NCBI GenBank assembly: GCA_048882485.1
Contig: JBHLRP010000015.1
Span: forward strand, 8,327-67,536
Source of the DNA: Candidatus Thorarchaeota archaeon
Lineage (GTDB): Archaea; Asgardarchaeota; Thorarchaeia; Thorarchaeales; Thorarchaeaceae
Reading direction: 5' to 3'
Length of the DNA stretch: 59,210 nucleotides
Both the position numbers and the translations under genes were made by a program. Numbering within the stretch: the stretch's first letter is position 1; every line of letters begins with the position of its first letter. This document shows, piece after piece, positions 22,269 to 39,383 of this stretch. The notes under the pieces were generated by a model that worked only from the letters and a program-made list of their open reading frames with translations, was not told the origin of the DNA and did not search any database.

Positions 22269-22392
22269 AGTTTTATCGCCCTTTAACTTGACTAGTTCTG
22301 GTGGAGCCTGCAGCAGCCAAGAGCTTCCCGTGCTCGGCAGGACACCGAAACTCGCAGTTTCATTGTCAAGCCCACATTCTTTGCTAGCAATC

Positions 22393-22412
22393 ATGACAAT
22401 AAATGTTGTCTT
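22393..22412. promoter_or_regulatory. Palindromic operator ATGACAA-N6-TTGTCTT upstream of the hdrA fusion operon
   Basis: Same arms and spacer length as 17628-17647, with one mismatch. Confidence 0.55.
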
Positions 22413-22559
22413 GTAAAGGATGCTTCTTATCAGGACATGTCATAAGTGAGACGAAGACGCAACGAGTATTGACGCGGTTCTTCCAAATCATGGTTTGAGA
22501 TCTTGTTCCAATTAGGGAGAGCGTGTTTCACTTGTCTTTTGATTATCTATAAGAATCGC

Positions 22560-22618
22560 AAAATGAAAGGGCGCTCAGCAGTGTGATAGGGCCAGTTCCC
22601 CAAATGCTCTACTCATAC
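22560..22618 (+). repeat. Dispersed repeat type A (hairpin with compensatory changes)
   Basis: Core + GTGTGATAGGGC...GCTCTACTCATAC. Confidence 0.85.
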
Positions 22619-23015
22619 TATATTCGGTCCGTGACTTATTTCAATCGTCACCAGAATTAGTATCGACCCTTATCTGATTCGCGGGCTCGATTTTCTGATA
22701 AGTCTGGAGTATATTTCAGGCCCGGATAATATTGGACTAGAAATGTGGTGGAAAACGATGGAATCACTGCTAAAATGACTCAGAATTTCACTTGTCCGGC
22801 AGAAAGACAAAGACGGTATATTGAAGATGCAGAGGATCATCCTTGATACGCCTAATATGAACAAATGCTCTCAGATGACTCTCCGCACATTGTTCGAGGT
22901 ATCTTTCGACCTGAATTTCACTTGTTGTTGTTAACAGATGCTGAATCATTTAGATAGCCCCTTATGCACGGCTCTAGACTCTAATGGCAATGCATGCTTC
23001 TTGGTGAGAGTGAAT

Positions 23016-23330
23016 TCAAGCTGCCTCCTGTGTTTCTTGTTCCATTTCCCACTCATCCTCCCCCAGCTCATCCCTCAATAAGCGGATCAAGCGGTTTCTG
23101 GTTATTGCAAAGGTTTCTTGTCTTAGAGCGGTTGTTATGACAGCCAAACTCCTGACAAGATCAAGAATTGGGTATTCACTTGAGCTTGCCAGCCATTTCT
23201 CCTCCTCAAGTATCTCGTCTACCTCTTCTAGGTCTGCTGGCAGATTGATTTCCGATAGAATATGCATAGCATCTCTTCTAAGACGGCTCAATGATTCCGA
23301 TAGTAGATGGATTCTTTCGTTCCCTTCCAT
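23016..23330 (-). CDS. Hypothetical helical acidic protein
   Basis: ORF open to 23411; ATG 23330 follows a purine-rich RBS. No family recognised. Confidence 0.55.
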   Translation of the reverse strand: MEGNERIHLLSESLSRLRRDAMHILSEINLPADLEEVDEILEEEKWLASSSEYPILDLVRSLAVITTALRQETFAITRNRLIRLLRDELGEDEWEMEQETQEAA

Positions 23331-23837
23331 TCTAGTCCCCTCTCTTTTCTGAAATTGGAGCTTTGTGGTCCAATAATGTGCCGCAAATAGACTTGTGCCA
23401 ATCCAATCCATGGCACGGGTTCTCAGAATCTGATGTCATTTTTTCTCTCAATTGTATTCACTTCTAAGTCATTCTTTACATCTAATATGGCTGAAAAAAC
23501 AGGATTCGGATTTAGTACCCAACCTTTGATGTCCGTGATGCATCCAAAGTAATGACCATGAAGGCATCAATTCTTGGACCGAAGGCTGCTTTCTCCAATG
23601 CTATGTCTGTTCTTAGTATATCTAGCAGTTAGTGCGAAGACTTCCGCTTATAAATATAATCAAAAGATTAATAGAACACTATAAAAATTATACAATCGTT
23701 ATATAAATTATTATCTTTAGAATTGTAACTCCACACCTTGGAATATGAATTGTTGTGAGAGTATCAAGTGCATGGTTCAATCTGAAAGTATTTAGTCATG
23801 AACCTTAAGCCCGTGCAGTCAAGGACTGTTATTCATA

Positions 23838-25142
23838 TTGTCAGAGAACCCCATAGAACTAGACGGCGCAGATTCTCCTAGTCCAAACTATGAAGGAAGT
23901 GTACTTACTGTACTAAATCTCTCTCTGGTGACGTTCCTAGTCATCATTGGTCTGAGCATGGTCGCACCAATTCTTCCTACTTACGCGGAGAGCTTTCAAG
24001 TCTCTTACACACTTGTTGGTTTTGTTGTGTCATCCTTTGCAGTAATGCGAATGCTTCTTGATTTGCCTGCAGGTCTTTTCTCAAGGAGGTTTGACAAGAA
24101 GAAAATCATGATGTCAGGCTTGGTTCTAATCTCTACATCATCCGTGCTGGCTGGTTTCGCTCTCAACTATTCTACTCTTGTTATTGCTCGAATGATCGAG
24201 GGAGCAGGTTCAGCTCTGTATGTCACCACAGCAACAGTGTTCCTTGCTCAAATCTCTGGAGAGGAGAAGAGGGGACAATGGATGAGTCTTTACATGGGAA
24301 TGTTGCTTCTCGGTGCCATCTTTGGACCAACATTTGGAGGTATTATTGCAGACGTGTATGATATTCGTGCACCCTTTTTTGCCTACGCATTGATAACAGG
24401 CATTAGTTTGATTCCAACATTCGTATTGCCAAAGCTGCCTAATTCCGGAAATGGCTCTTCTCTTTCCCGAAATCAAATCCTCCATGACATGAAGGAAGTT
24501 CTCTCCACCCCCTCGTTCCTCTTGGTGACCTTTGCAGTCTTCACAACATTCTTTCTGCGAACAGGGGTGAGAACTACGCTAGTACCCCTATATGCGGCTA
24601 ATAACTTGGGGCTAGACTCCGGTGCCATTGGCCTCATCCTTACTATTGGGGGAGTAACAACAGCTCTTACAATTACACCGATGGGAAGTGTTTCAGATAG
24701 AATTGGGAGAAAGATTCCCCTAGCATTATGCCTTATTCTGACTGCGGGAGTTACGTTACTAATCCCACTATCTACAGATCTGTTCACGCTGTCCTTTGCT
24801 ATGGCAGTATATGGAGCGGTCATTGGGTTCTCGGGTCCTAGCGCAGCCTATGTGACTGATGTATCACCACAGGACAAATTGGAGATATCCATGGGACTCT
24901 ATCGAATGATCAGTGACTTTGGTTTCGTCGTGGGACCTCTTCTACTTGGCCTTTTAGCAGACATAACAGCCACTCCTGTAGTTGGAGCATCCCACTCAGG
25001 TCTAATTGGATTGGTTCCTTTTGTGGCGGCATCAATTATCCTTATTGTAGCATTCTTTGTACTCCTAAAGGCTGATGATCCAGCAAAGGATAGAAACCAA
25101 TTGAAGAACAGAGAAGTACAGATTTCTGACGCTCGAAGATAG
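23838..25142 (+). CDS. MFS transporter (DHA1-like)
   Basis: 12 TM; PAG..SRRFDKK and GSVSDRIGRK motif A, ARMIEGAG, GPTFGG. Confidence 0.92.
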   Translation: MSENPIELDGADSPSPNYEGSVLTVLNLSLVTFLVIIGLSMVAPILPTYAESFQVSYTLVGFVVSSFAVMRMLLDLPAGLFSRRFDKKKIMMSGLVLISTSSVLAGFALNYSTLVIARMIEGAGSALYVTTATVFLAQISGEEKRGQWMSLYMGMLLLGAIFGPTFGGIIADVYDIRAPFFAYALITGISLIPTFVLPKLPNSGNGSSLSRNQILHDMKEVLSTPSFLLVTFAVFTTFFLRTGVRTTLVPLYAANNLGLDSGAIGLILTIGGVTTALTITPMGSVSDRIGRKIPLALCLILTAGVTLLIPLSTDLFTLSFAMAVYGAVIGFSGPSAAYVTDVSPQDKLEISMGLYRMISDFGFVVGPLLLGLLADITATPVVGASHSGLIGLVPFVAASIILIVAFFVLLKADDPAKDRNQLKNREVQISDARR

Positions 25143-25157
25143 TCTTCTAGCAAAATT

Positions 25158-25234
25158 AAACGAAAGGATGATCAGCGGTAGGCAATAGGAAATCCATCAA
25201 ATACTCTATCCTGCCACCTCTACTTTCCTCTACC
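25158..25234 (+). repeat. Dispersed repeat type A, overlapping the stop codon of the DinB-like gene
   Basis: AAACGAAAGGATGATCAGCGG...AATACTCTATCCTGCCACCTCTACTTTCCTCTACC. Confidence 0.7.
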
Positions 25235-25726
25235 CTCCTTTATCCAACGCCGAATCCTACTTTTTGCCCATCGATAATGATTAGCGGAGTTCGCCAGAAT
25301 GTAGCCAGCAATATTCTCAGTCCCAGTCCATTCGTATCTACCGACCTCAAACAAATCCTCTTCAGGGATACCATTGATTGTATCAAGCAACCTCTCGTAG
25401 GATGATCGAAATTCTGCCTTCACATCGTCAAGGGTCCGATTTCGATGTTTTTCAAAGACCTCCTGATTCAAGATGTGCAGTTGGCTCCATTTCAGACCTG
25501 GCGCAGGTGTTTCAGGCACTTCACCTCGGAGTCCTGCTTCGTACCATCCAAGAAATCTCTGCTCCCAGTCAAAGAGATGGGCTATGATGTCCTTCACAGA
25601 CCACTCCGCGATGACACCAGGCACCAACATGTCTTCATCAGAAAGGGGCTCGATGTTCTTTTCTAACCTGCGACGTTCAGTATGGATCCTTTCTATAATG
25701 CTCTCCTTGGTTTTACGCTTCTTCAT
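25220..25726 (-). CDS. ClbS/DfsB (DinB superfamily) four-helix bundle protein
   Basis: WSVKDIIAHL.DWE, P.PG.KW....LN, NSANHYRW. Confidence 0.85.
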   Translation of the reverse strand: MKKRKTKESIIERIHTERRRLEKNIEPLSDEDMLVPGVIAEWSVKDIIAHLFDWEQRFLGWYEAGLRGEVPETPAPGLKWSQLHILNQEVFEKHRNRTLDDVKAEFRSSYERLLDTINGIPEEDLFEVGRYEWTGTENIAGYILANSANHYRWAKSRIRRWIKEGRGK

Positions 25727-25808
25727 TTAGACCCACTCACGAATTATCAAATATCGTTGCACTTGCCAGCAATAACTATTGAGTTCGTAGCCATTATAGG
25801 GATAGCAC

Positions 25809-25888
25809 AAAATGAAAAGGGCGTGCAGCAATGGGCAATCCTCAGTAATCAATCTCATCATCGCCTACACTTCTTTCCACCTTAGAAG
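25809..25888 (+). repeat. Dispersed repeat type A
   Basis: AAAATGAAAAGGGCGTGCAGCAATGGGCAATCC...TCGCCTACACTTCTTTCCACCTTAGAAG. Confidence 0.8.
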
Positions 25889-25988
25889 ACAAAGGTGATC
25901 CATCCGCGGCTTCCGCTACGGATACCTTGTTAAATAGTGAAAGAAATCACAAGCAGAATAGACTCACTTCATATCAGAGGGTCAATAA

Positions 25989-26579
25989 ATGAATAGGATG
26001 AATCCCAAGGTTGATGCATATTTGAGCAAAGCCAAAGAGTGGCAGGAAGAATTCGAGAAATTGAGAATGATTATTCTTGATTGTGGGTTGACTGAGGAAT
26101 TGAAGTGGGGCAAGCCTTGCTACACGTTTCAGAAAAGTAACATAGTTATAATTCAGGGATTCAAGGAATATTGTGCACTTCTTTTTTTCAAAGGCGCCTT
26201 GTTGAAAGATGCCAATGGTATTCTAATCAAACCAGGGGAGAATACGCAGGCGGGGCGCCAGATTCGGTTCACCAATTCTCAACAAGTAGATGAGATAGAA
26301 CCAATCTTGAAAGACTATATTCATGAAGCCATTGAAGTGGAAAAAGCGGGTTTGAAGGTTGATTTTAAGCCGACTACAGAATTCAAAATTCCTGGGGAAT
26401 TTCAAAGTAAGTTGGATGAAATCCCTGCCTTGAAAACTGCTTTTGATGCATTGACGCCGGGACGACAAAGAGCGTACATTCTCTATTTCTCTCAACCCAA
26501 ACAATCCAAAACCAGGAATTCAAGGGTTGAAAAATATATGCAGCAAATTCTCAATGGGAAGGGATTGAATGACCGTTAA
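25989..26579 (+). CDS. YdeI/OmpD-associated family protein (DUF1801 + OmdA)
   Basis: NPKVDAYL, LTEELKWGKPCY, FKEYCALLFFKGALL, AFDALTPGRQRAY, KQSKTR..R, GKGLND; very bacterial-like. Confidence 0.92.
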   Translation: MNRMNPKVDAYLSKAKEWQEEFEKLRMIILDCGLTEELKWGKPCYTFQKSNIVIIQGFKEYCALLFFKGALLKDANGILIKPGENTQAGRQIRFTNSQQVDEIEPILKDYIHEAIEVEKAGLKVDFKPTTEFKIPGEFQSKLDEIPALKTAFDALTPGRQRAYILYFSQPKQSKTRNSRVEKYMQQILNGKGLNDR

Positions 26580-26771
26580 ATTCGATGATAGCATAAATTG
26601 ATCAAAATTCAAGATACCGCCTCATTCTTCGTTCATTCGAACTTCGAATCTACTAACTTCAAACAAATCCTCTTCAGCAATGCTATTGAGTTCATAGACA
26701 TTATGATATCAAATACTATCTTTTTCAATGTCTTAAGAAAACCTGCTAAGGTTTGTAGTATTGATGGGCTT

Positions 26772-27683
26772 CTACGGTTTCAGGTTTGTCAAGTCCAAAC
26801 TGACTTCCCAAAGCCGTTTTGCGGTTCCCAAGTCATAGGACTCATCTGAGGATTGCTTTTCTGACTTCTTCTCGAAGTATTTGCCTGTAACACCCTCGAT
26901 CTCAGGGGAAGCCGCGAGATAGATTGAAGTTTCCGCTCCTTTCTCAGGACTGCTTGCGAAGCGGCTAAAGATTCTATAGAGCATCCGATAGAATCGTGAG
27001 AGGTCAGGGTCCTTCTCAACAAGACCAGTAGCTACTGCACCTGGATGAAGACAATTAGCTGTGACCCCTGTGCCATCAAGTCTTCTTGCCAGCTCATAGG
27101 TAAACAGTACCAAAGCTAGTTTGCTCATATTATTCGCTCTCGAGCCATCATACTTGTTCTCTGACATCAGGTCATTGAAATTCATAGTTGCCTTTCTATG
27201 ATAGGCACCGGCCACATTGACTATGCGTGATGGTGCACTCGCTTTGAGTTTCTCAATGAGGAGATTCGTCAATAGGAAAGGGGCCAAGTAATTGACGGCG
27301 AATGTTGTTTCAATACCCTCTTCTGTGATAGTTCTCCTCGTCCTGTACGTTCCCGCATTGTTAACTAAGATATGAAGAGCTTGATAGCGATTCTCAAACT
27401 CTTTGGTAAGCCCTCGAATAGAATCCTGTAATGACAAGTCGCACAACAGAAAGCTGACCTGGTCATTACCTGTCTTGCTAGCAATTTCTTTAGCTGCCGC
27501 CTCTGCCTTCGGTTCATTGCGACACGCTAGCACCACATTTGCACCCATATTCGCAAGTCCAATAGCTGTCGCCTTTCCAATTCCGGAGCTAGCTCCTGTG
27601 ACCATGCAGACCTTGTGTTTCAAATAATCTGACTTGCCATGATTTTCTGTCAAATCGTTCACCTTCCTCCCAATCGCAATCAT
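26772..27683 (-). CDS. Short-chain dehydrogenase/reductase (retinol-dehydrogenase-like)
   Basis: TGASSGIG, LVNNAG, FAVNYLAPFLLT, LHPG.VAT. Catalytic YxxxK appears as NNMSK. Confidence 0.9.
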   Translation of the reverse strand: MIAIGRKVNDLTENHGKSDYLKHKVCMVTGASSGIGKATAIGLANMGANVVLACRNEPKAEAAAKEIASKTGNDQVSFLLCDLSLQDSIRGLTKEFENRYQALHILVNNAGTYRTRRTITEEGIETTFAVNYLAPFLLTNLLIEKLKASAPSRIVNVAGAYHRKATMNFNDLMSENKYDGSRANNMSKLALVLFTYELARRLDGTGVTANCLHPGAVATGLVEKDPDLSRFYRMLYRIFSRFASSPEKGAETSIYLAASPEIEGVTGKYFEKKSEKQSSDESYDLGTAKRLWEVSLDLTNLKP

Positions 27684-27762
27684 TGTAGTTGTTTCATATT
27701 CTGATGATTTACTATTAATCCTCCAGAATCAAGAAGACGTGCTGCTGGCACGGCTTTTGTTG

Positions 27763-27972
27763 CTAATTTGTAATTTGATCTAGGCCAGCAATGCCTAGAC
27801 AAGCCAGAGCAATCCCAGCAAGGGATTGATCGACTGGTTGGCCAACTATTGGTAGTATGACTATAACAACTCCCATCGCCAGTGCAATTGCATATAGTAC
27901 AAGAATCACCAACTTTTTCGGGGAAAGCCCCTCAGATGCCAAATCTTCTCTAATCTCTTCCATTTCTCTCAT
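27763..27972 (-). CDS. Small two-TM membrane protein
   Basis: 69-aa ORF with two hydrophobic helices. Confidence 0.6.
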   Translation of the reverse strand: MREMEEIREDLASEGLSPKKLVILVLYAIALAMGVVIVILPIVGQPVDQSLAGIALACLGIAGLDQITN

Positions 27973-28147
27973 CTCTTAGAACTTTGCGACATCACTCAAT
28001 GACCAATATCACTCTTCATTCGTATCTCAACCAAGATAAGAGTATAACGATGTTATGATTAAGAGGGAAGGCGGCTTAAGGCTGTGTCCTGTGAAGGTTT
28101 TCGTATATTTCCAACCTCAAGCATCATGCAATTGACTTCTTTCCAGT

Positions 28148-28216
28148 AAAATGAAAGGGTGCTCAGCAATGTGAGAAGGGCAGTTCCCCAATGCTCTCTC
28201 TCACCGCCGCCTCTGC
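28148..28216 (+). repeat. Dispersed repeat type A
   Basis: Core + GTGAGAAGGGCAGTTCCCCAATGCTCTCTCTCACCGCCGCCTCT. Confidence 0.92.
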
Positions 28217-28222
28217 ACCCAA

Positions 28223-28450
28223 TTAAGCCACCTTTTCAAAATCAACCGTTAAGGCTTGTCCACAATATGGACACTCTATCCTGTCGGGGCCAATCCAGTT
28301 CACCTTTTCAGTGTGAATGCTCGCCCCACAGTTGAAGCATTTCTGTGGAACTCGAGGCATCAGCATAGCCGATGTACCGCGATCAATTCGCTCAGGATTT
28401 CTCACCGTTACTCTGGATTTTCTCTTTCTTGTTGCACTTCCGCATCCCAT
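28223..28450 (-). CDS. Small zinc-ribbon protein
   Basis: CFNCGA ... V.W.GP...ECPYCG; two CxxC pairs. Confidence 0.7.
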   Translation of the reverse strand: MGCGSATRKRKSRVTVRNPERIDRGTSAMLMPRVPQKCFNCGASIHTEKVNWIGPDRIECPYCGQALTVDFEKVA

Positions 28451-28879
28451 CTGTTTCTCATCCTTCCTAATCATTTGATAAATAGTTTCTAATTCTCCCT
28501 GCGAAGACTCTCAGGTCTTCCTTATAATCAAGCATTAGCAACACAACTCTACTAGAAATTCCACCAACAAATAGAGGCGATACAAACATCAGTTCTTGCA
28601 TTTCATGTCATCCCCGTTATTTGTTAAAGGAAACCGCAAACAGGAGAGCTCTTCCGGATGTTCGGTATCGGTCAATGCGACGGCGTTTAGGGCGCATGCT
28701 GCTGTGCAAAGCCCTGATCTGTTCGGCCTTGTTCCCATCGCGGCCTAGACCGATGGATCCATCGACTGACTCTTCCTCAGCTCGACTTGTGGTTTTACGT
28801 TCTATTGATACATAACTTGTTTCACACGCCATGTTAATCACATGATACTAGATGCTAAGAACTCAGTTTAGTATTATAG

Positions 28880-28918
28880 CGTAATATGACGGTAGTAGTT
28901 TTTAAACGTAATATTACG
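28880..28918. promoter_or_regulatory. Two palindromic sites CGTAATAT(G/T)ACG upstream of a Bat-type HTH gene
   Basis: CGTAATATGACG at 28880-28891 and the perfect CGTAATATTACG at 28907-28918; related to 31595-31614. Confidence 0.55.
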
Positions 28919-28937
28919 GCTCATACTATATATTGCA

Positions 28938-29639
28938 ATGAAACAATGGAAGGGTATGCCACTCTTCGAAGTCACATTCAAAGTAAGTCATGATTGTCCA
29001 GTTGGAAACATTTCACGCAAGCATCCACCATTGAAGATATTTCAATGGTGTAATCGTGAACATGATGTCCTAGAGTTAGTTATTCGGAATCAGAACGAAT
29101 ACTCCAGCATTCGGGGTGATTTGCAGAAGACCATGAATATCATGAATGAGGTATCAGATAGCGATAGAGTACATTTGGTCACGAAATCATGTTCTTGTCT
29201 AGAACCTGGATCTGTAAGCCGCTATCTCGAGGAGTTGAACTTCCTCGAATTCAACCCAGTATATTATGAGAAGGGTTGGGAATACTACAGGATAGTTGCG
29301 TTCAAGCATGAAGATATCACGAGGTTGATGAGGAATCTCACAACTGAAGAGTTTGAAGTCGAAATACTACGAAAGAAACCGTACAGTGGTTCGTTCATCA
29401 GCTCAATGGCGATGACGGCAGATACTCTGTTCTCAGAACTGACAGATAAGCAAATGGATGCCCTGGTCACCGCTTACTCTCATGGATACTTCAGTTTTCC
29501 AAGAAGAGCGAATGTTCAGACGATAGCGGAGAGGTTGCATGTTCCAAGAACTACATTTGTCGATCATTTGAAGAAAGCGGAAGGAAAATTGGTGGCTGCA
29601 CTCGTCCCATATATCCAGCTTTTCCGGCGTGCAAAATAA
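28938..29639 (+). CDS. Bacterio-opsin-activator-type (HTH_10) transcription regulator
   Basis: N-terminal HDCP; C-terminal LTDKQ..AL..AY.HGYF.FPR.A....IA..L......F..HL.KAE.KL. Confidence 0.9.
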   Translation: MKQWKGMPLFEVTFKVSHDCPVGNISRKHPPLKIFQWCNREHDVLELVIRNQNEYSSIRGDLQKTMNIMNEVSDSDRVHLVTKSCSCLEPGSVSRYLEELNFLEFNPVYYEKGWEYYRIVAFKHEDITRLMRNLTTEEFEVEILRKKPYSGSFISSMAMTADTLFSELTDKQMDALVTAYSHGYFSFPRRANVQTIAERLHVPRTTFVDHLKKAEGKLVAALVPYIQLFRRAK

Positions 29640-29656
29640 TGCATAGCAACCGCTGT

Positions 29657-29736
29657 AAAATGAAAGGGGGCTCAGCAATGAGCATTTGGTAATCCCCCAA
29701 TACTCTATCATCGCCGCCTCTACTTCTCTCTATCTT
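29657..29736 (+). repeat. Dispersed repeat type A variant
   Basis: Core + GAGCATTTGGTAATCCCCCAATACTC + TATCATCGCCGCCTCTACTTCTCTCTA. Confidence 0.9.
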
Positions 29737-29930
29737 GAGATCTATTGCTGTTTCTCCATGCAGACATCAAAGCCCCAAGGATCCTGAACCTTGGAGGCCA
29801 ATGTGTATCGTAGTTTCTCGAAAAATCTGATAGCATCAATATCGGGGAGTGGTCCAGATGGAATTATTGGCGGTGTTGTAGGTGGGATTATATTCTCGTC
29901 GAGTTGTAGCAGCTTGGAATATCAGGCGTC

Positions 29931-30410
29931 CTATTCCATACTAGCAAGTACCCAATTAGCCACACTTTGTGCTACTTGATTCCTTTCAGTTTCAGGGACC
30001 GCGTCAATATCGAACACATTCGTATACTTCTTATAATGAGACAATGCATCGAATTGAACCAACTTATCTTCAGGAATCAGATTTTCTAGAATCCGTCCCC
30101 AACATCGCATAAAACATCCGTCGATTAGTATGACTTTGTCTGCTGCTGCAACCCAATTATCAAATCCTGAACCGGGCACAGTGAGTACTTCACCATGACA
30201 TGCTTGTCGAAACCCGTCGTTTTTCGAAACTATGTTTGCGGCTAATCGAGCGATTTCCCCTCGGATACATGCTCCTGCACAGGCTAGAATGGGTGTTTTC
30301 TTCTCCGACATAAATTGAGCACCCGTTTTCTCTCCAATAGGACACCGTTTAGTAGTTCCTGTTACATCTAGAGTAAAATCCGTATTCGGTTCTCTCATGA
30401 GCATTCTCAC
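29931..30410 (-). CDS. DGC-domain putative zinc-binding protein
   Basis: CP.GE, ACAGACIRGEIARLAAN, ACH, IDGCFMRC.GR. Confidence 0.75.
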   Translation of the reverse strand: MRMLMREPNTDFTLDVTGTTKRCPIGEKTGAQFMSEKKTPILACAGACIRGEIARLAANIVSKNDGFRQACHGEVLTVPGSGFDNWVAAADKVILIDGCFMRCWGRILENLIPEDKLVQFDALSHYKKYTNVFDIDAVPETERNQVAQSVANWVLASME

Positions 30411-30567
30411 ATTTTGTATGTCTGCAAACTGTGCTAATAAGCAGCTTAGTCGAATTTGCTATAGTACAAAAGGGTCAATAGACCTGAATCACAAATCAAA
30501 TCCTAATGCATCGAGCTAAAAGGCCCAATCATACTTCTTATTTGTCATTCGGCACACGCTCAATGTC

Positions 30568-31425
30568 ATGAGTGCCATTCATCTATCAAGAGAGTCAATA
30601 ATACGGGTTCTAGTCTTTATTGTAATCTATACACTGCTTGGATTGCTTATCCCACTTCAGGGATATGTTTCCCCAGGTTTTGCCATCGGCACGGTGATCA
30701 CGGCTTCTCTCTATGGTTTTGTCTTGTACTACTTGAACACAAGCATCCCTTTAGGGAAAAAAGGTCGGATATTGATGACATGGATTGCGGTCTATGTGAT
30801 TCAGATGTTCAATCCAGTTTTAGAGGGCATCTTTTTCACGACTCAGTTTGAGGGGCAGCCAGAGCTAGCATTTGGAGCTATTGTCTTCGGACTGGTTCTT
30901 ACTCTACCTACAGCACTTGTAGCAGGATTCCTGTTCAATCCAAAGGGGGAGATTACCAGCTTTAGTCAACTCAACGAAGAATACTTCAATGGATGGACTT
31001 CCTCACAATTTGCGATACGATTCATAGTTGCATCTATGATGTGGTTAGTCATCTATTATACGATTGGAAGCATCATTGCACCTTTGGTACTTCCTTACTA
31101 TACTGATGGAAGTGTAGGCTACAACTTGACACTTCCTGCAGTTGAAATTGTAATTCTGCTTCAGACCATTCGAGGATTCATCTATGTTCTCAGTGTTCTT
31201 CCAATTGTCATATCAGTGAATCTGAATAGGAAATCACTAGCAATCATACTAGTTGCACTCCTTTATATTGCAGGTGCCTTGGCTGTATTTGTCATTTCTG
31301 AGCAATTTCCAGTCTTCTTGCGAATTGTCCATGGAATTGAGTTGTTTGTTGATTCATTGATTGCAGGCATCGTGATTGCCTATATTGTAGGAAAGCCCGG
31401 GGAATCTGTGCAGAACATGGAGTAA
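30568..31425 (+). CDS. Multi-pass membrane protein
   Basis: About 8 hydrophobic helices, E..FFT and PYY motifs. No function assigned. Confidence 0.75.
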   Translation: MSAIHLSRESIIRVLVFIVIYTLLGLLIPLQGYVSPGFAIGTVITASLYGFVLYYLNTSIPLGKKGRILMTWIAVYVIQMFNPVLEGIFFTTQFEGQPELAFGAIVFGLVLTLPTALVAGFLFNPKGEITSFSQLNEEYFNGWTSSQFAIRFIVASMMWLVIYYTIGSIIAPLVLPYYTDGSVGYNLTLPAVEIVILLQTIRGFIYVLSVLPIVISVNLNRKSLAIILVALLYIAGALAVFVISEQFPVFLRIVHGIELFVDSLIAGIVIAYIVGKPGESVQNME

Positions 31426-31508
31426 TTGGGTTCTATCAATAAGGCAATACAGTATGGTCAGGACAGATACTACCTTCTTCATCGAGGTTAATCGTCACAT
31501 ATTGAATG

Positions 31509-31556
31509 AAAATGAAATGGTGCTCAGCAATGAGTAATTACCCAAATACTCGATTA
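31509..31556 (+). repeat. Dispersed repeat, truncated
   Basis: AAAATGAAATGGTGCTCAGCAATGAGTAATTACCCAAATACTC. Confidence 0.8.
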
Positions 31557-31594
31557 CTCTGACTCCATGATGTAGTCCGCCAAAAACCGAGGAG

Positions 31595-31614
31595 ATACTG
31601 TCATATGACAGTAT
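31595..31614. promoter_or_regulatory. Perfect 20-bp palindrome ATACTGTCATATGACAGTAT upstream of the second Bat-type HTH gene
   Basis: Exact inverted repeat about 30 bp before the start; core GT(A/C)ATAT(G/T)AC shared with 28880-28918. Confidence 0.65.
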
Positions 31615-31641
31615 ACAATACATTACGCAATAAGGAGAGAA

Positions 31642-32385
31642 TTGGTTATGACTCTATTTGAACTTGAATTCAAGATTCGACACAATTGTAGATTAGCGGA
31701 CTTCTCCCTTCGACGACCCCTTGCAGGTGTGCACATGTGGAGAATAAAGAATCATGAGATCATTGAGGTCTTTTCTCGAGATGGGTCAGAAAATCCAGAT
31801 GCCCTAGAAGATGCGTGTGCTCTTGACGGCATAATTGATCATGTTGGAAATAAGTACCAGAACTATCTCATAGCAAAATCAATTCCATGTGGAGTGGACA
31901 AAACCATCGAAGATTGCTCATCCAAGCTCGATATTCTTCATTTGGCACCTGTTAGTTACTACAATGGATGGGAGTATCATAAGGTGGTAGCATTCAGACA
32001 AGATGACATAACCAATCTCATAGAAGAATTTCAAGAGGACAGCTACATACCGTCGATTCTCCGCAAAGTACCATTCAGTGGGTTCTCTGCAGGGTCGATG
32101 ACAGTGCGAACAGAGTCTTTGTTCCAAGGCTTGACTGATCTGCAGACTGATGCAGTTCTTACTGCGCATTCTCATGGATATTACCGAATACCAAGAGCTG
32201 CAGATGTCAAGGCAATATCAAACAGCATAGGTGTCAGAAGGACTACTTTTCAGGAACATCTGCGAAAAGGAGAGAACAAAATCATGCAAGCGCTAACACC
32301 CCATCTTCATACCTGGCATCATTTCTCAGGGAAGAAGGGATCTCATCCAATGTCAGTTGGCACGGGTATAGCTGAAAAAATCTGA
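31642..32385 (+). CDS. Bacterio-opsin-activator-type (HTH_10) regulator, paralogue of 28938..29639
   Basis: LFE..FK..H.C, PV.Y..GWEY, LRK.P.SG, LTD.Q..A..TA..HGYY..PR.A, TTF.EHLRKGE.K. Confidence 0.88.
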   Translation: MVMTLFELEFKIRHNCRLADFSLRRPLAGVHMWRIKNHEIIEVFSRDGSENPDALEDACALDGIIDHVGNKYQNYLIAKSIPCGVDKTIEDCSSKLDILHLAPVSYYNGWEYHKVVAFRQDDITNLIEEFQEDSYIPSILRKVPFSGFSAGSMTVRTESLFQGLTDLQTDAVLTAHSHGYYRIPRAADVKAISNSIGVRRTTFQEHLRKGENKIMQALTPHLHTWHHFSGKKGSHPMSVGTGIAEKI

Positions 32386-32390
32386 GCCTT

Positions 32391-32777
32391 CTATAGTTTA
32401 AGAGATGTGTAAGATTTGCTGATGATTAACCATTTGCCTTCATCTTGAAGAAGTGTAAGGTAGTCTGTAAGTATAGTCCTCTCGATTGGAGTTTCTCTGA
32501 GTACCATCACCTTTGCAGAAGCGATGTTTCTAGTCACATCGATTGACGCAATCGTACTGGTTCTCTTTTCTTCCTGATCTATCGGATTCTTGCACCAATC
32601 TTCCCAGAATGAACGAGGGACTGAATTCACTTCACCATCCCTTACAAAACTCATTCTTGCTTCAGAATGCCAGGATTCTTGAAACTTATTCCAGTCTTTG
32701 TGTTTCACTGCCTCCAGATAGGTATTGACCGTTTCTCGAACATTCTCTATTTCTTCGATCATAATTCTAAGCTCCAA
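32391..32777 (-). CDS. NTF2-like (SnoaL/lumazine-binding-like) protein
   Basis: V..Y.EA.....W..F...WH..A, I.SIDV...IASAKV, TDYL.LL...GKW.IISK. Confidence 0.8.
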   Translation of the reverse strand: MELRIMIEEIENVRETVNTYLEAVKHKDWNKFQESWHSEARMSFVRDGEVNSVPRSFWEDWCKNPIDQEEKRTSTIASIDVTRNIASAKVMVLRETPIERTILTDYLTLLQDEGKWLIISKSYTSLKL

Positions 32778-32871
32778 GTTTTGATGTGTTGTCTTGAGGC
32801 TGTATCAGACATAAGGTTAGTACTGACTTTAGACTGGACCAAGTAATCAGAACGGGGGATGAAAGAGATGC

Positions 32872-32897
32872 AAAATGAAAGGGTGCTCAGCAATGCG
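32872..32897 (+). repeat. Dispersed repeat, perfect core only
   Basis: AAAATGAAAGGGTGCTCAGCAATG. Confidence 0.8.
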
Positions 32898-32992
32898 GAG
32901 AGAACCACCAACTTAAGATGAAAGATGATAGTGCAGGCGCCAACTCTTGTTTCAGTGAACAATCATCGTTCTGGCCCCTATTCCTACTTTGA

Positions 32993-34126
32993 TCAATATT
33001 TCAGTTCGTGTGGATATCTGGTCAATACTAGAGGCGTATCTTTTCCTACCACAACCGTGTCTTCTAACCTTATGCCCCATTCTGAAGTATAGATTCCGCA
33101 ATTGCCGATGGCAATGGGTGTGTTCTCTGTAAGGGGAGGAGGGGCTTTTTCGCCATGGAAGAAAGCATGACCAGGAGGCAGTGGAGCTTCCTCGAAATTA
33201 ATCCCTATTCCGTGTATGGGAGGGCCAAAGATGTTCTCTCCGTAGCCAGCGGCCTGAATCACATTATGAAGCGTCCTTTCAAGCTCAATCATTCCCACTC
33301 CTGCAACTGACTTTGTCGTCGTCTTCAGTAATGCTTCCAGGTATACATTGTATGCCTTGACCTGTTCATCTGTTGGCTCTCCAACACAGGCCATTCTACA
33401 GATATCAGAGGAATAGCTTTTTACAATAGGATGAAAATCGATTAAGATGACATCGCCATCCTGCACTTTGCGATTCGTTGGAATTCCATGGGCGATTCGT
33501 GTCCGTATCCCACTCGCCACATAAGAACGCCAAAAGCCTTCGGCACCAGCTTGACGCATGGCATATTCACCTTCTCCCGCAATCTGGCTCTCAGTCATTC
33601 CAGCCTTGATAGAAGTTATTGCGGCTTCCATTCCTGCATCAGCAACTCTCCCTGCTTCTTTCATTAATTCTATCTCGAAAGAATCTTTCACTGTCCTCAG
33701 TTTAGAGAGAATATCTGTGCAATCTGCGACTGTTACAGCCTCAGGCTTTGCATGGGGATGTGTCAGCATCTTCATCATTGAACTGGTTAGGAACGTGTAT
33801 TCCAATCCAACAACGCCCTTACTGACTCCAAACTGTTTGAAGAAGTCTGCAATTGAATGGATCATCCCTACCTCATCCTCGAAGGACAAAATATGGTCAA
33901 AATATGCTAGATCGGTTACATCCTCCACATCTGTTTTTGGAACTCCCATTGCAACCTGTTTGTCACTGTTTATCATTATAAAGGCGCACAGACGTCCATC
34001 TCCAGTGAAGTAGTACATGTTTGAAGGCTTTGTTAACAACAGGACACCTAGGCCGTCTCTCTTCATTGCCTTGGTACAATTATCAACACGTTGGTCGAAA
34101 ACTCTCCTATCAATATTGGCTTTCAA
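32993..34126 (-). CDS. M24 family peptidase/hydrolase (Xaa-Pro aminopeptidase/creatinase fold)
   Basis: N-terminal creatinase domain; LRTVKD..EI, AHG, D...Y.SD..R, HGIG, GIRLED. Confidence 0.88.
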   Translation of the reverse strand: MKANIDRRVFDQRVDNCTKAMKRDGLGVLLLTKPSNMYYFTGDGRLCAFIMINSDKQVAMGVPKTDVEDVTDLAYFDHILSFEDEVGMIHSIADFFKQFGVSKGVVGLEYTFLTSSMMKMLTHPHAKPEAVTVADCTDILSKLRTVKDSFEIELMKEAGRVADAGMEAAITSIKAGMTESQIAGEGEYAMRQAGAEGFWRSYVASGIRTRIAHGIPTNRKVQDGDVILIDFHPIVKSYSSDICRMACVGEPTDEQVKAYNVYLEALLKTTTKSVAGVGMIELERTLHNVIQAAGYGENIFGPPIHGIGINFEEAPLPPGHAFFHGEKAPPPLTENTPIAIGNCGIYTSEWGIRLEDTVVVGKDTPLVLTRYPHELKY

Positions 34127-34353
34127 TTCTAGTCACCTGGCTCTCCATACCATGCACTTGAAAAGCTCGGCTCATAAGTCTAGTCACCAACCAACCTAGA
34201 CTCATTATGATGTTACTGGATTCTTGACTCCCTTCCAATAGCCGTTTCTAGACAGCTTAGGTGAATGCAAGGAGGTCCTCATTGAAGTAGTTCACAACAG
34301 GAGTCTATTAATTCACAAGGCGATTGACATCCGATTTGATACAATAAGAGTGG

Positions 34354-34427
34354 AAAATGAGAGGGTGCTCAGCAGGTGGAGAATGGGAAAGTTCCCTGTT
34401 CATCCGACCCCTTCAGCCTCCGCTTCT
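34354..34427 (+). repeat. Dispersed repeat, degenerate
   Basis: AAAATGAGAGGGTGCTCAGCAGGTGGAGAATGGGAAAGTTCCC...GCCTCCGCTTCT. Confidence 0.75.
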
Positions 34428-34458
34428 TGGCCATCTAATCTTGATTTGAATGACTATG

Positions 34459-34620
34459 CTATGAAAGCGAGAGTTTGGATGACTTTGTTGCATGTCGCGT
34501 TATTTCAAGATTGCATGATTTGTGTTTAATACACCATTGCTCACATTTCTTTGCCCAGTCTTCATCTTCATACATTAGATGGCATTCCTCACATTCATAG
34601 AGCCCGTTAATTTCCTTCAT
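34459..34620 (-). CDS. Small zinc-finger protein
   Basis: YECEECHLMYEDEDWAKKCEQWC..HKSCNLEITRHA; CxxC/C/C/H ligand set. Confidence 0.7.
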   Translation of the reverse strand: MKEINGLYECEECHLMYEDEDWAKKCEQWCIKHKSCNLEITRHATKSSKLSLS

Positions 34621-34686
34621 AATCTTGAGTTTCACTTGGACAGTTATCTCTGTTATGAAAGGGGAGTTTGAGTAATTCACTGAAGA

Positions 34687-34780
34687 AAAATGAAAGGGTG
34701 CTCAGCAATGTGAGAAGGGCATTTCCCCAATACTCTATCTCACCGCCGCCTACACTTCTCTCTACCTTGGAAGGAAAAGG
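34687..34780 (+). repeat. Dispersed repeat, full type A (near consensus)
   Basis: AAAATGAAAGGGTGCTCAGCAATGTGAGAAGGGCATTTCCCCAATACTCTATCTCACCGCCGCCTACACTTCTCTCTACCTTGGAAGG. Confidence 0.95.
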
Positions 34781-34994
34781 AATCCAACCTAGCTGACTAT
34801 GAATCAAAGATATCTATTATTGCGGCCTGTCGATGCTCGATTTCTATCTGGTTCACACACCGCCTGCTCTGAACGTCATCTTTAATTCAAGCCAGAATAA
34901 TGGCCTCTGATAAGATACAATCTCTATGCGAATTCAGATTCTTGGAATCAGAAGCAAAAACACAGGTGCAGATAGGTTTCGAAGGGATCCTAAG

Positions 34995-36107
34995 ATGAAG
35001 ACTAGGACCGCCATTGTCATTTGGATTATAGCTTTGATCCTCACTCTAAATCCGGGAACAATTCACTTAGTATCTGGAGCAGATACGAATGAGGTTGTGC
35101 TAGCAAGGATAGGGCAGATTGAAACTGCCGATGCTTATGATTTGTGGGTTGATCCTAACAATGACATTGCCTATGTCACCTGCGGTTACTCCGGAGTAAT
35201 AGTACTCGATGTAAGCGAACCTCACAATCCGACTGAGCTAGCACTTATGCCTTCTTCTTCAAATGGATATGCCCATCAGTTTGTCATGCGCGAGAATCTG
35301 ATGTTCATAGGTGATGGCAATGGTGGGCTCAAAATTATCGACTGGGCGAACTTGTCGAATCCTAATCTTTTGAGCCAGTATACCGGGGAGTATTCATGGG
35401 ATGTAGAGGTGGAAGGAAATACTGCATTCGTGGCCAATGGCTTCATGGGCAGTGGCGATAGACTAACAATTGTCAATATTACTGATCCTACCAATCCCAT
35501 GCTTTTAGGAAGCCACACTACCGTCGGAGACGCAACCGACATTGAAGTTGCGGAGAATCTGGCATTTGTGACAACCAGCTACGCCGGAATCACTGTCTTT
35601 GATGTGAGTAATCGCACGAATCCGGTTCAGGTAGGACAGTACACAGGACAATCGACTAGCAATGCAGAATTGGGCGACCTCGAAATTGTTGACAACTTGG
35701 CCTATCTGAGTTATTGGGAGAAAGGCTTGAAGGTACTGAATATTAGTGACATATCAAGTATTGAATTGGTAGCTGAATTCAATGAGAGTTTGAATGCTTT
35801 TTCAGTCCACATCGAGAGGGACAGCAGTCTGGGCTTTCTCTGTGACCACGAACTGGGGTTAGTGGTGCTGGACATCAGTATTCCAACCCAACCTAATGAG
35901 ATTGGCCAATACTTTGATGGGGGCAAGCCCAATCGCATACAAGTGGTAGATAATCTCGTCTACATGACTGACTCAGATAATGGATTCGTTATTCTAGAGA
36001 TTATAGAGAATCATACATTCATATCAGGTTTTGAGCTGGTATTGATTGTTGGAAGCATCGTGTCCATCCTCGCAGTTGGTTGGTGGCTAAGAAAGAGAAA
36101 ATCATAA
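34995..36107 (+). CDS. Secreted LVIVD-repeat beta-propeller protein with C-terminal membrane anchor
   Basis: Signal peptide; repeated AYV...G..V.DVS.P.NP units; C-terminal TM followed by RKRKS. Confidence 0.85.
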   Translation: MKTRTAIVIWIIALILTLNPGTIHLVSGADTNEVVLARIGQIETADAYDLWVDPNNDIAYVTCGYSGVIVLDVSEPHNPTELALMPSSSNGYAHQFVMRENLMFIGDGNGGLKIIDWANLSNPNLLSQYTGEYSWDVEVEGNTAFVANGFMGSGDRLTIVNITDPTNPMLLGSHTTVGDATDIEVAENLAFVTTSYAGITVFDVSNRTNPVQVGQYTGQSTSNAELGDLEIVDNLAYLSYWEKGLKVLNISDISSIELVAEFNESLNAFSVHIERDSSLGFLCDHELGLVVLDISIPTQPNEIGQYFDGGKPNRIQVVDNLVYMTDSDNGFVILEIIENHTFISGFELVLIVGSIVSILAVGWWLRKRKS

Positions 36108-36155
36108 TTCAATGATGAAAATCTGGGAAAATCTTGATTGTTAAGATTATAATGC

Positions 36156-36180
36156 AAAATAGAAGCGTGCTCAACAGCAG
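36156..36180 (+). repeat. Dispersed repeat, degenerate core
   Basis: AAAATAGAAGCGTGCTCAACAGCAG. Confidence 0.55.
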
Positions 36181-36206
36181 ATATGATTTAGCCAAAACTG
36201 TGTAAC

Positions 36207-36593
36207 TCAACTAGGTCTGGAACGAATGAAGCCGCCAATGAATTGAGATTTGACACTCACATCGATCCCCGATCCAGCAACCTTCTTAATCATCTCTATA
36301 GCATAATTGTGGGGCGTGCCATAAATCTCGATGCTGGTTGGTTCAATGAACTTGTAGGTTATTTTTGTTCGTTGATCAGCTCCCTGTAATTGTTGATCTA
36401 ATGCCTCCGCATTCGGAAAGATACGAATGATATCCACCTCAGTGGCATCGTCGTTGATGTATGCAAGCTGGATAATCGTACCTTGCTTGCTTTTCTCTGT
36501 CTGCGGGATGCTTTTCTGGTAGTGATTCTTGAAATCATCGAACATCCCTTGCTTTACTCGATGGCGGATGATGAATACGATAGAGTCAGTCAT
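36207..36593 (-). CDS. ABM/dimeric alpha-beta barrel-like protein
   Basis: IVFI...VK.G..DDFK, GT...LAY.NDD.TEV, IEIYGTP, GGF.R. Confidence 0.65.
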   Translation of the reverse strand: MTDSIVFIIRHRVKQGMFDDFKNHYQKSIPQTEKSKQGTIIQLAYINDDATEVDIIRIFPNAEALDQQLQGADQRTKITYKFIEPTSIEIYGTPHNYAIEMIKKVAGSGIDVSVKSQFIGGFIRSRPS

Positions 36594-36617
36594 TTGGCAT
36601 CATTCTGCAAACGATTC

Positions 36618-37049
36618 TTAGGTTTCAGACTCGATGAGCTGCTTCATATTTCGACCACTCCGTTCCAAGCGGCTGGTTATGAAACTCTTATCCATGGACT
36701 CAGCCATTCCGGGAATATCAATAACAGTCGTTACGGTGGTTTGATTCTCACCTACAGCCTCGAATGTAATCAGTCCACGCATCTCAGCGGGACCGTCATG
36801 GATAATCGTTCCCATGGCACGGTTAGGCTCGAATTCCACCACTTCCATGGTCCCCTCAACGGGAGTACCGCTGCGGCTGTTGCGTCTGCGAATAATTGTC
36901 CCAACTCCAATTGGACCGTCCGATTCCAGAGAGAGCTCTATGTCTGGATCCCAGCGTGGATGGTTACGGACGTGTTGTTCAGCGACGAAGTGAAAAACTT
37001 TTGTTACTGGCCGATTAATAACCTGCGAGTATCTTATTTGTGCTGGCAT
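36618..37049 (-). CDS. SRPBCC/polyketide-cyclase family protein
   Basis: I.RPV..VF.FVA...NHPRWDP, GPIGVGT, EVVEFEPNR, MKQLIES. Confidence 0.85.
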   Translation of the reverse strand: MPAQIRYSQVINRPVTKVFHFVAEQHVRNHPRWDPDIELSLESDGPIGVGTIIRRRNSRSGTPVEGTMEVVEFEPNRAMGTIIHDGPAEMRGLITFEAVGENQTTVTTVIDIPGMAESMDKSFITSRLERSGRNMKQLIESET

Positions 37050-37151
37050 GGTCCTCACCGTATATTAACTATTGTTAATATGATGCCCTAGTTCATATAA
37101 TCTTAGTGTTAGGTGTCCATCTATAACAGCCAAGTCAGGAATGATAATCGC

Positions 37152-37296
37152 AAAATGAAGAGGGTGCTCAACAGTGTGGGCAGGTAAGGACCATACTCTT
37201 GGCGCGTGGGCAACCTGTCGATTAGAAAGCGTACTCCTATCGTAAGCCAGCATCTCTCTCTGTCAGAGAACGAGCAAGCTGTTTCGCAATTTGAAT
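37152..37296 (+). repeat. Dispersed repeat type B (core + long alternative tail)
   Basis: Core + GGTAAGGACCA...GGCAACCT...AAGCC...CTCTCT...CAAGCTGT, homologous to 56820-56956. Confidence 0.75.
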
Positions 37297-37318
37297 CGTG
37301 TGACAATCTTGTGGCGAT

Positions 37319-38305
37319 TTATTTTGTAAATTGATACTGTTGATAATCGTTCTTGCAAGGATATCCTACCGCCAGATGAACCATACCGGTGCCAAGTTCA
37401 CAGAACCAAGAATAGATAGTGCCTCCAGGGGGATTATTCAGGTGCTCACATATACCAGTATTATGACTCCTACAGATTCTCTTGATGTCTTCAAGATTTA
37501 TGTCATTATTGGATTGAGTGAACCATTCCATGATTCGACGATGATAGGTCCATGCCCGGTCATCCTTTGGCATAGAGTCCAATTCTTTCATACTATCAAG
37601 CATGAAGAAATTACACACGATTCTAAGGTTGCCCTCAGAAATTTCGGCATCGACCCTTATTGGCGTGCATTCCACACGTGCTGAAACCCCTGTCTTGTCA
37701 GCGACAAGATATACTATTGGCCGAACATGAGGAATACTCTTTAGATATTCGACGGTTTCTTCAACACTAGAGAAATTGTCTAGCGACCATCTTGTAGCAA
37801 GACTCTCAAGAATACCTACTCCATTCTCTCCAATATAGAATGGAATGGAGGCCGATCCTATTGCCAGTCCAGTTTCATTCAATCCATCAAAGCATCCAAG
37901 ATCAGCAAAGTTGAAACCAAGTACAGAATGCTTTCCTACTGGTTTCGTCTGAAGCAGATTAAGAAACTTGAGATCATCTTCTATCCAATCCATGTGGCGC
38001 ACAAAGATAGGCAGTCTATTGCGAGTGCTTTCTCCCTTTACAAAAAAAAGATTACAACCATTTGAAGCCACAGGGAGAATATGTGTAGCAAGAATCTGCG
38101 GATACTCCAGACCTATTCCATCTGAAAATCCTCTCAGCTCGTCAAGTAGATCAGGGGCATGTGCCCTCACTGCGTCTTCACAGGCATATGCGTACTCCAA
38201 TCTCTCATTATCAGGAGTATGATATAGTGGCTTATCAGCCCTCCGGGACCTTCCAAACGCCTTTCCAATTTCGTAGTAGCTACCTTCGAGCTGTAGATAT
38301 TCCAA
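37319..38305 (-). CDS. Peptidase C45 / acyl-CoA:6-APA acyltransferase family (Ntn hydrolase)
   Basis: LEGSYYEIG..FG, P.LLDELRG, GCN nucleophile, R.MDW, DGLNE.GL, D..G...VE. Confidence 0.85.
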   Translation of the reverse strand: MEYLQLEGSYYEIGKAFGRSRRADKPLYHTPDNERLEYAYACEDAVRAHAPDLLDELRGFSDGIGLEYPQILATHILPVASNGCNLFFVKGESTRNRLPIFVRHMDWIEDDLKFLNLLQTKPVGKHSVLGFNFADLGCFDGLNETGLAIGSASIPFYIGENGVGILESLATRWSLDNFSSVEETVEYLKSIPHVRPIVYLVADKTGVSARVECTPIRVDAEISEGNLRIVCNFFMLDSMKELDSMPKDDRAWTYHRRIMEWFTQSNNDINLEDIKRICRSHNTGICEHLNNPPGGTIYSWFCELGTGMVHLAVGYPCKNDYQQYQFTK

Positions 38306-38413
38306 TATTCATCTCTCCGCTTATCATTAGGCTGAATTCTAAATTGAAGTATGAAGCTCAATATTGAATTATAAGAATTTGCAGGAATTGTATATACTAT
38401 CTATTCAATTGAT

Positions 38414-38508
38414 AAAATGAAAAGGGTGCTCAGCAATGTGAGAAGGGCATTTCCCCAATACTCTATCTCACCGCCGCCTACACTTCTCATTACCTTAGAA
38501 GGTAAAGG
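38414..38508 (+). repeat. Dispersed repeat, full type A (near consensus)
   Basis: Almost identical to 34687-34780. Confidence 0.95.
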
Positions 38509-38541
38509 TCGGATGGATTTCATACACGAAGTTAAGGAAAC

Positions 38542-39102
38542 TTACAATCCCTCGTGTGAAAGATTCAAGAATTCAATCGACTCATCCAAGGAAAGCACGA
38601 CACCAAGCTCCTCAGGGTTCGTTTCCAGCCAGCCATCTAGGTGTTTCTGATCAGGGAAGAAGTTGTAGTGATCGCAGAAGGGGATGCCCTTGGGGCCGTC
38701 CCCTATCCAAAAAACGATTGAAGGATGGGAGGTACGAACGAGTTTGCTGTCCTCAATCTCGATTTCCATCTTCTCACCACAGTGGAAACAGGTGGCCTTA
38801 ACTAAGCCTTCACCACGCAGCAGAGCCGTCCCTAGGGAATCGTAGCCGCACATGACCTTTATCTCGCGCCCATCCGGCGAAACGATGGACTGCCCGCGCT
38901 CTATATCTGTTTCTCCGATTGTGACCTTGCCTTTCCGAATCGATGCTACCCATTCTCGACCCCCGGCTGTCGCCAGCACCTGTGCTCTAGCAAACTTGAT
39001 GAGCTCAGTCAGGGTGGCGGGGGGTTTTCCCATCCCATACTGTTTCTGTAACCGTTTGCTCAGGTCTGGGTCTAATTTCACTTCTCTCATCAGCATTCCC
39101 AA
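38542..39102 (-). CDS. merB: Alkylmercury lyase-like protein
   Basis: MCGYDSLG (catalytic Cys/Asp), CFHCGE, FCDHYNFF (second catalytic Cys), followed by W and L.L.E. Confidence 0.75.
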   Translation of the reverse strand: MGMLMREVKLDPDLSKRLQKQYGMGKPPATLTELIKFARAQVLATAGGREWVASIRKGKVTIGETDIERGQSIVSPDGREIKVMCGYDSLGTALLRGEGLVKATCFHCGEKMEIEIEDSKLVRTSHPSIVFWIGDGPKGIPFCDHYNFFPDQKHLDGWLETNPEELGVVLSLDESIEFLNLSHEGL

Positions 39103-39306: not shown

Positions 39307-39383
39307 AAAATGAAAGGGTGCTCAGCAGTGTAAGAAGGGCATTTCCCCAATACTCTATCTCACCGCCGCCTCTACTTCTCTCT
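39307..39383 (+). repeat. Dispersed repeat, full type A
   Basis: Core + GTAAGAAGGGCATTTCCCCAATACTCTATCTCACCGCCGCCTCTACTTCTCTCT. Confidence 0.95.

Follow-up and report, generated by a model that had tools for sequence, protein, structure and literature searches.

Copies of a putative 16S rRNA trailer punctuate an accessory-gene island in Thorarchaeaceae

The intergenic repeats in a 59,210-nucleotide stretch of a Candidatus Thorarchaeota contig (GenBank assembly GCA_048882485.1, contig JBHLRP010000015.1, positions 8,327 to 67,536 of the forward strand; hereafter the window) appear to originate from the flank of a ribosomal RNA (rRNA) gene. Read on the minus strand, each repeat is probably a copy of the 3′ flank, or trailer, of the 16S rRNA gene of the family Thorarchaeaceae. 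The copies are spread along an island of 57 kb or more that probably lies downstream of the 16S gene. A probability of about 0.85 is assigned to this identity of repeat and island, which is graded separately from the mechanism that built it. Most likely, the locus is a gene-cassette island that is anchored to the rRNA gene and shuffled by recombination within the trailer copies. A first-pass annotation had described the same repeats as bulged hairpins with a conserved extrahelical base.

Origin of the repeats

The trailer is found directly 3′ of a complete 16S rRNA gene in three genomes (G395, G380, and G398) and in 14 further loci. In G395, the complete small-subunit (SSU) rRNA stands immediately ahead of the first copy (Rfam match at 4000-5531 of locus L052, ending just before that copy). 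The 16S gene of G003/G380, which belongs to the same genus as the host, lies on the minus strand of contig C94 (64272-65773), and the array copies at 59130-64175 run head-on into its 3′ end. The native trailer of this genus is near-identical to the window copies at 34687 and 38415. The 3′ end of 16S rRNA (...GGATCACCTCCT) stands ahead of the first copy in G002. A BLAST search of 16S against all loci additionally revealed pieces of 25-105 nt from the 16S 3′ end adjoining array copies in the window (Table 1), on another contig of the same assembly (C124), at three copies of L060, and, with 105 nt, in G002. Eight further loci have a 16S gene next to a copy, either full or cut by the contig end. 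Two other readings of the surroundings were rejected. The motif AGGAGGTGATCC that follows many copies is not a Shine-Dalgarno site but the reverse complement of the 16S end, and glutamate dehydrogenase does not qualify as the anchor gene, as no match exists at its C-terminus and the gene changes place with respect to the array from genome to genome. The window has no Rfam match at gathering thresholds, the repeats have none in E-value mode, and ARAGORN finds no tRNA in the window.

On the plus strand, the full unit starts with a 21-nt box (AAAATGAAAGGGTGCTCAGCA), continues through a variable middle that includes the hairpin of the first-pass annotation, and ends with a pyrimidine box (CGCCGCCTCTACTTCTCTCTA) and a short hairpin (CCTTAGAAGG). 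The repeat is about 75-150 nt long, and some copies add 25-105 nt of the 16S 3′ end. When up to two mismatches are allowed, the 12-mer GGGTGCTCAGCA has 17 matches in the window (16 on the plus strand), compared to 4.0 ± 2.3 in shuffles. The copies are intergenic irrespective of the direction of the neighboring genes and are spaced by 0.3-3 kb. In the host assembly (G000), they are confined to one strand of the window contig (C15) and of two small contigs (C124 and C143). The copies form one same-strand cluster per genome in two complete relatives. In a survey of 400 Asgard genomes for the box 16-mer with at most one mismatch, 47 of the 85 genomes of the host family were positive, covering 11 of its 16 genera; outside the family, the 16-mer occurs only as single near-matches in seven of about 314 other Asgard genomes.

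The box itself can be assigned a place in 16S maturation. The leader and trailer of archaeal 16S rRNA are described as pairing over a long stem that harbors a bulge-helix-bulge (BHB) site (PMC7038931, PMC8339473, PMC10351888). Leaders and trailers were compared for 27 full 16S loci from 14 genera, 18 of which have a locatable trailer. Judged by this comparison, the 21-nt box, which is the best-conserved part of the repeat, represents the trailer side of the basal helix in the pre-16S processing stem. Its partner in the 5′ leader is GCTCARCAGTG, and a U-rich end follows the box. The reverse-complemented box lies 74-139 nt past the 16S end in 17 of the 18 native trailers, and its complement GCTCARCAGTG is located 120-170 nt ahead of the 16S start in 24 of the 27 leaders. 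Co-folding yields a long leader-trailer stem, the basal helix of which comprises 11-13 bp in ten distinct leader/trailer pairs and shows compensatory changes: A-U (seven pairs) is exchanged for G-C (three pairs) at one position, G-C for U-A at another, and G399 carries a double change. Beside the box, only a 3x4 internal loop was found; a canonical 3-4-3 BHB was not identified there. The likeness to the archaeal processing stem lies in a conserved, covarying box that forms one strand of the basal helix, and the difference is that the trailer strand is here multiplied about 20-fold along an island. A second structure, the hairpin directly past the 16S end, is strong in all genera with differing stems (z -2 to -6.5), and covariation is supported in it. 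A long-range pairing within the element (GGGUGC in the box with an inner GCACCU), which is predicted in the long class, was rejected, because it is weak in class I and leader pairing of both segments explains the data better.

Four 16S matches in members of the family span 2.1-2.4 kb rather than about 1.5 kb (G370:C82, G339:C2, G387:C10, and G368:C73; loci L078, L090, L094, and L095), and this length suggests introns or insertions within the gene.

Island layout and exchange of modules

At its far end, the island is bordered by a decayed copy followed by a CLC-channel flank (window 1-1650), which shows synteny to the region flanking a copy in L027. Because this flank adjoins a copy in both places and the contig ends inside a trailer copy, the island spans about 1.65-59.2 kb. 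The copy at the contig end may be the native trailer of the host genome, given the type that it shares with L036 (Table 1). One end of contig C143 (3230 nt; positions 1-25) carries the same box followed by GCAT, like the last copy of the window. This contig end probably reflects strain variation in the newest modules, with the assembly graph reaching the same 16S-proximal trailer by a second path.

Table 1. Trailer copies along the island (window coordinates)
Position	Strand	Feature	Remark
1653..59210	-	whole cassette island	~21 co-oriented trailer copies between accessory modules, by copy census; 16S gene itself placed past contig end
1653..1674	-	degenerate outermost copy, distal trailer box only	island far end
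11180..11199	-	copy cut down to distal 21-nt box	
11922..12008	-	class-I trailer copy, distal box decayed	
22561..22615	-	distal box and hairpin, without inner part	22560 in first-pass annotation
25157..25234	-	decayed class-I trailer copy, after MFS gene	
25810..25932	-	copy keeping 40 nt of 16S rRNA 3′ end	25893-25932 = 16S positions 1490-1529, 97.5% identity
28149..28212	-	copy ending within inner pyrimidine box	28148 in first-pass annotation; identical cut in L039
29657..29740	-	class-I trailer copy	"alternative stem" copy of first-pass annotation
31510..31554	-	truncated trailer copy	
32873..32895	-	copy cut down to distal box	
34355..34430	-	class III, a different sequence class that also occurs in native trailers of other genera	
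34688..34779	-	near-complete class-I trailer copy	almost identical to the trailer following 16S in G380 (same genus)
36157..36176	-	copy cut down to distal box	
37153..37300	-	long class-II trailer copy	joined to DUF1801 module in other strains
38415..38507	-	near-complete class-I trailer copy	
39308..39381	-	class-I trailer copy without 16S-proximal hairpin	
41201..41267	-	copy without distal box, begins directly past PAS histidine kinase stop codon	
41928..41979	-	truncated trailer copy	
59128..59210	-	class-II trailer copy, cut by contig end	type directly following 16S in L036

The modules carry zero to three accessory genes, are joined at the copies, and differ in their order among relatives. 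In the window, they encode MFS, DinB, DUF1801, and SDR proteins, two HTH_10 regulators, DGC, an M24 peptidase, LVIVD, a MerB-like protein, a PAS kinase, and others. Among the cargo that recurs across loci are ParE, PIN/VapB, GNAT, ABC transporters, and ferritin. ParE, PIN/VapB, GNAT, DinB, and transporters are typical of cassette arrays, and the integron-like behavior of the locus, with co-oriented repeats between shuffled modules, is supported. In L026 from the same genus, MFS is directly followed by DUF1801 and the DinB module is missing, which the window holds between the copies at 25157 and 25809. L026 continues with the 34356-34766, SBF (9669-11175), and M24 (32966-34374) units of the window in altered order, and L039 harbors an additional 1-kb unit at copy 29657. 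In strain-level contigs, the DUF1801 unit stands behind three different trailer versions; the short joints at the box are generic and uninformative in these contigs.

Several individual genes of the window deserve mention. The SBF-family symporter (9644-10678, minus strand) lies in pieces, with a 217-aa ORF that covers only the back half of the profile, compared to an intact 359-aa gene in G001, and is probably a decaying cassette gene. Two HVO_A0563_N/HTH_10 regulators (28938-29639 and 31642-32385, plus strand) occupy adjacent island modules. A 211-aa ORF without Pfam match (11262-11897, plus strand) recurs adjoining trailer copies, twice in L038, and the window holds a second copy of its 3′ end at 56731-56829 (87% identity). 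An HdrA-MvhD-like flavoprotein with an N-terminal DUF7347 winged-helix domain (19737-22394, minus strand) adjoins hydrogenase subunits, and in G001 a stand-alone DUF7347 protein adjoins the last copy of the array.

The copies differ in how their two edges are defined. At the outer, U-rich end, 17 of 21 window copies begin their match to the native trailer at one and the same base. The inner edge on the 16S side varies; it lies behind the box, at diverse points of the trailer, or 0 to 105 nt into the 16S gene across arrays, and one window copy extends 43 nt into 16S. The box variant keeps to its outer neighbor module, and the inner part to the neighbor on the 16S side: the variant GGGTACTC follows MFS in two genomes, and an inner-box variant stays with DUF1801. 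This partition argues for exchange inside the repeat, and the exchange points differ by case, lying between the two boxes of the repeat, at the 16S piece, or directly behind the box.

On the proposed route, recombination inside the trailer copies would let modules come in, go out, and trade places, with the conserved 16S end and trailer serving as portable homology. A circle with one trailer piece and its cargo would integrate by a single crossover of the Campbell type, and excision would occur between two direct copies.

The searches for recombination enzymes bear directly on this route. IntI (TIGR02249) has no match in the host genome, which is 90.5% complete and was the only genome searched for it. 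Tyrosine recombinases (PF00589, E ≤ 0.01) are absent from G000, G002, and G003, where not even a Xer-type protein was found, so that three of four genomes, one of them complete, lack this family; the same search was positive in all 14 control genomes. The four genomes contain no match to the Y1 HUH transposase (PF01797) and no free-standing LAGLIDADG gene; LAGLIDADG matches occur only in intein-like large ORFs on other contigs and are absent from G001 and G002. Among the window ORFs and the recurrent array genes, no recombinase was found, and Pfam returned no match for the unannotated ORFs in and beside the arrays. None of the enzymes searched for is encoded close to an array. Because the crossover points vary, and because IntI, Y1, and free-standing LAGLIDADG were not found and tyrosine recombinase is missing from three of four genomes, homologous recombination may be the leading mechanism, although the odds placed on it fall slightly short of even.

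A site-specific enzyme is kept in play by the exact common outer edge and by the minimal copies. In such an integron-like platform, a recombinase or nuclease that is encoded elsewhere or on a transient element would recognize the distal box, cut at the outer edge, and insert modules carrying the box. The shared outer base, the co-orientation of all copies, and the presence of copies of just the 21-nt box at module junctions are what such an enzyme would leave behind. The varying exchange points within the repeat and the enzyme searches speak against it, including the recurrent array genes without a recombinase, and this explanation is considered unlikely, though it is the strongest of the rivals.

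Some observations weigh against a trailer-based island shuffled by homologous recombination. The window’s own 16S gene is absent from the assembly, so its adjacency to the window is deduced from related genomes and from the position of the contig end within a trailer copy. As a side observation, an SSU rRNA search found no 16S in G000, G001 (CP070658), or G002 (CP070761), the latter two of which are labeled complete chromosomes; their 16S may be masked, absent from the assembly, or missed by the first-look filter. The array of the complete genome G002 begins with the 105-nt 16S piece and not with a whole gene. The common outer edge would fit a site-specific cut, and copies of only 20-25 nt are short for homologous recombination. 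Since most copies were located through the conserved box, its conservation among relic copies is partly due to ascertainment. No circular intermediate or enzyme was observed.

The bulged hairpin and other readings of the repeat

According to the first-pass annotation, the repeats fold into hairpins with covariation and a conserved bulge, the structure being selected as single-stranded DNA (ssDNA) or RNA. The copies that it placed at 22560, 28148, 29657, 34687, 38414/5, and 41199 are all present, and RNAfold reproduces the hairpins of 28148 (-15.1 kcal/mol, z -3.0), 22560 (-12.0, z -2.9), and 34687 and 38415 (-10.0, z about -2). The latter two contain a C·A mismatch that had been left out. The one-base bulge does occupy the same place in these four copies. 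Of the two compensatory A-T/T-A swaps that had been proposed between 28148 and 22560, one is a true A-U to U-A exchange, but the other turns out to be a one-pair register shift; the two copies also differ by a G-C to G·U change. The alternative stem of 29657 exists, but is weak (-4.2, z -0.8).

In an alignment of 44 class-I copies from the window and related loci, RNAalifold predicts no consensus pair. The 14-pair hairpin helix is paired to 72.1%, compared to 72.3 ± 0.7% in column shuffles (352 of 500 shuffles reach as high), and its covariation score is 0.091 versus 0.094 in shuffles. The two stem columns beside the bulge are gaps in 26 of the 44 copies, which makes the bulge specific to one sub-lineage; attC-type extrahelical bases conserved across the array were not found. 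Compared with dinucleotide shuffles, whole elements gain hardly any stability on either strand (mean z -0.3 to -1.3). The hairpin that native trailers form at this position is weak or varies in strength (z +1.1 to -3.7; host genus, -1.1). As pairing is no better than in shuffles and the position of the bulge is not conserved, the claim of covariation around a conserved bulge is not upheld. The bulged hairpin is a lineage-specific part of the 16S trailer and not a covarying structure. Selection on RNA structure, which had also been proposed, is real, but it acts on the box-leader stem and on the hairpin right after the 16S end.

The suggested likeness to recognized hairpins fared no better. The attC core pair (RYYYAAC and GTTRRRY) is present within -40 to +160 nt, on either strand, at none of 17 copies, and IntI is missing from the host genome as stated above. 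A recognition by IS200/IS605 TnpA or RAYT finds no counterpart in a Y1 transposase among the four genomes, and the copies are restricted to one locus and one strand. An autonomous family of bulged hairpins that is selected as ssDNA or RNA and recognized like attC or IS200/REP hairpins is thus largely refuted and very improbable: the four stable window folds (z -2 to -3) with their common bulge and one compensatory swap are outweighed by the 44-copy alignment, the near-zero z values of whole elements, the variable fold in native trailers, and the origin of the repeat in the 16S trailer.

Finally, a coding origin, with the copies as remnants of a gene's 3′ terminus (...His-Cys-stop, read on the minus strand), is refuted by the adjacency of the repeat to 16S. 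The apparent third-position variation at TGY and CAY, and at codons for Gly and Pro ahead of a TGA in the box, speaks for this idea, but no copy at any locus extends into a long ORF (the longest archaeal case has 93 codons), and many copies contain stops and frameshifts. The variation at TGY compensates for a G/A difference in the leader, and the best-conserved bases fall past the supposed stop.

Relation to known systems and significance

Among the closest known systems, integrative elements accrete in tandem at the 3′ ends of tRNA and tmRNA genes, including the tycheposons of Prochlorococcus (bioRxiv 10.1101/2020.12.28.424599). Both systems share an RNA-gene anchor, units bounded by direct, co-oriented copies of the anchor’s 3′ end, islands of variable cargo, and many units without an integrase of their own. 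They differ in the anchor, which is here the 16S rRNA 3′ end with its processing trailer instead of a tRNA. Additionally, three of the four genomes contain no integrase, no integrase-bearing units were found, and the inner edges vary as described above.

Integrons resemble the locus in the single array per genome, the co-oriented repeats, the small, unrelated, and shuffled modules, the toxin-antitoxin, GNAT, and DinB-type cargo, and the position of the array head beside a fixed platform. In contrast to integrons, the arrays show no R''/R' cores, no IntI in the host genome, and no orientation bias of the cargo, and their repeats come from an rRNA flank. The box string does not occur in the supplements examined for the archaeal integrons (Ghaly et al. 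2022, PMC9668308), and the Thor genomes of that study list only two attC each. IS200/IS605 and REP/RAYT elements are dispersed genome-wide and often lie in both orientations, whereas these copies are confined to one locus and one strand and are not accompanied by Y1.

Rows of terminal gene fragments are also said to arise in fungi, where WHO homing elements at FBA1 in yeasts and mobile ORFs at mitochondrial gene ends reportedly leave series of 3′-terminal fragments of the host gene. Such rows would share the fixed 3′ end and the variable 5′ start with the trailer copies. They are reportedly built by an encoded homing endonuclease, however, and none was found in or near these arrays. The literature search returned no paper that describes this repeat or island, or rRNA-anchored islands in archaea.

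For the repeat itself, the analysis traces what had been a speculative family of structured repeats to a concrete source beside the 16S rRNA gene, namely its flank. To our knowledge, the leader and trailer comparison also gives the first comparative view of the pre-16S processing helix in Thorarchaeota. At the level of the family, a large and fast-changing accessory-gene island is exposed that is tied to the 16S gene of an Asgard lineage. With about even chances, Thorarchaeaceae may possess an integrase-free platform for gene capture on 16S, in which modules, each tagged with a piece of the 16S end and trailer, would circulate between species and stack behind the rRNA gene, either by homologous recombination on the most conserved sequence of the genome or through an undiscovered enzyme that reads the processing-stem box. 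If true, this would help to explain why 16S genes and their neighborhoods are poorly assembled and binned in these metagenome-assembled genomes. If cassettes do move by means of the rRNA end, the family would have a route of gene flow that needs no integrase.

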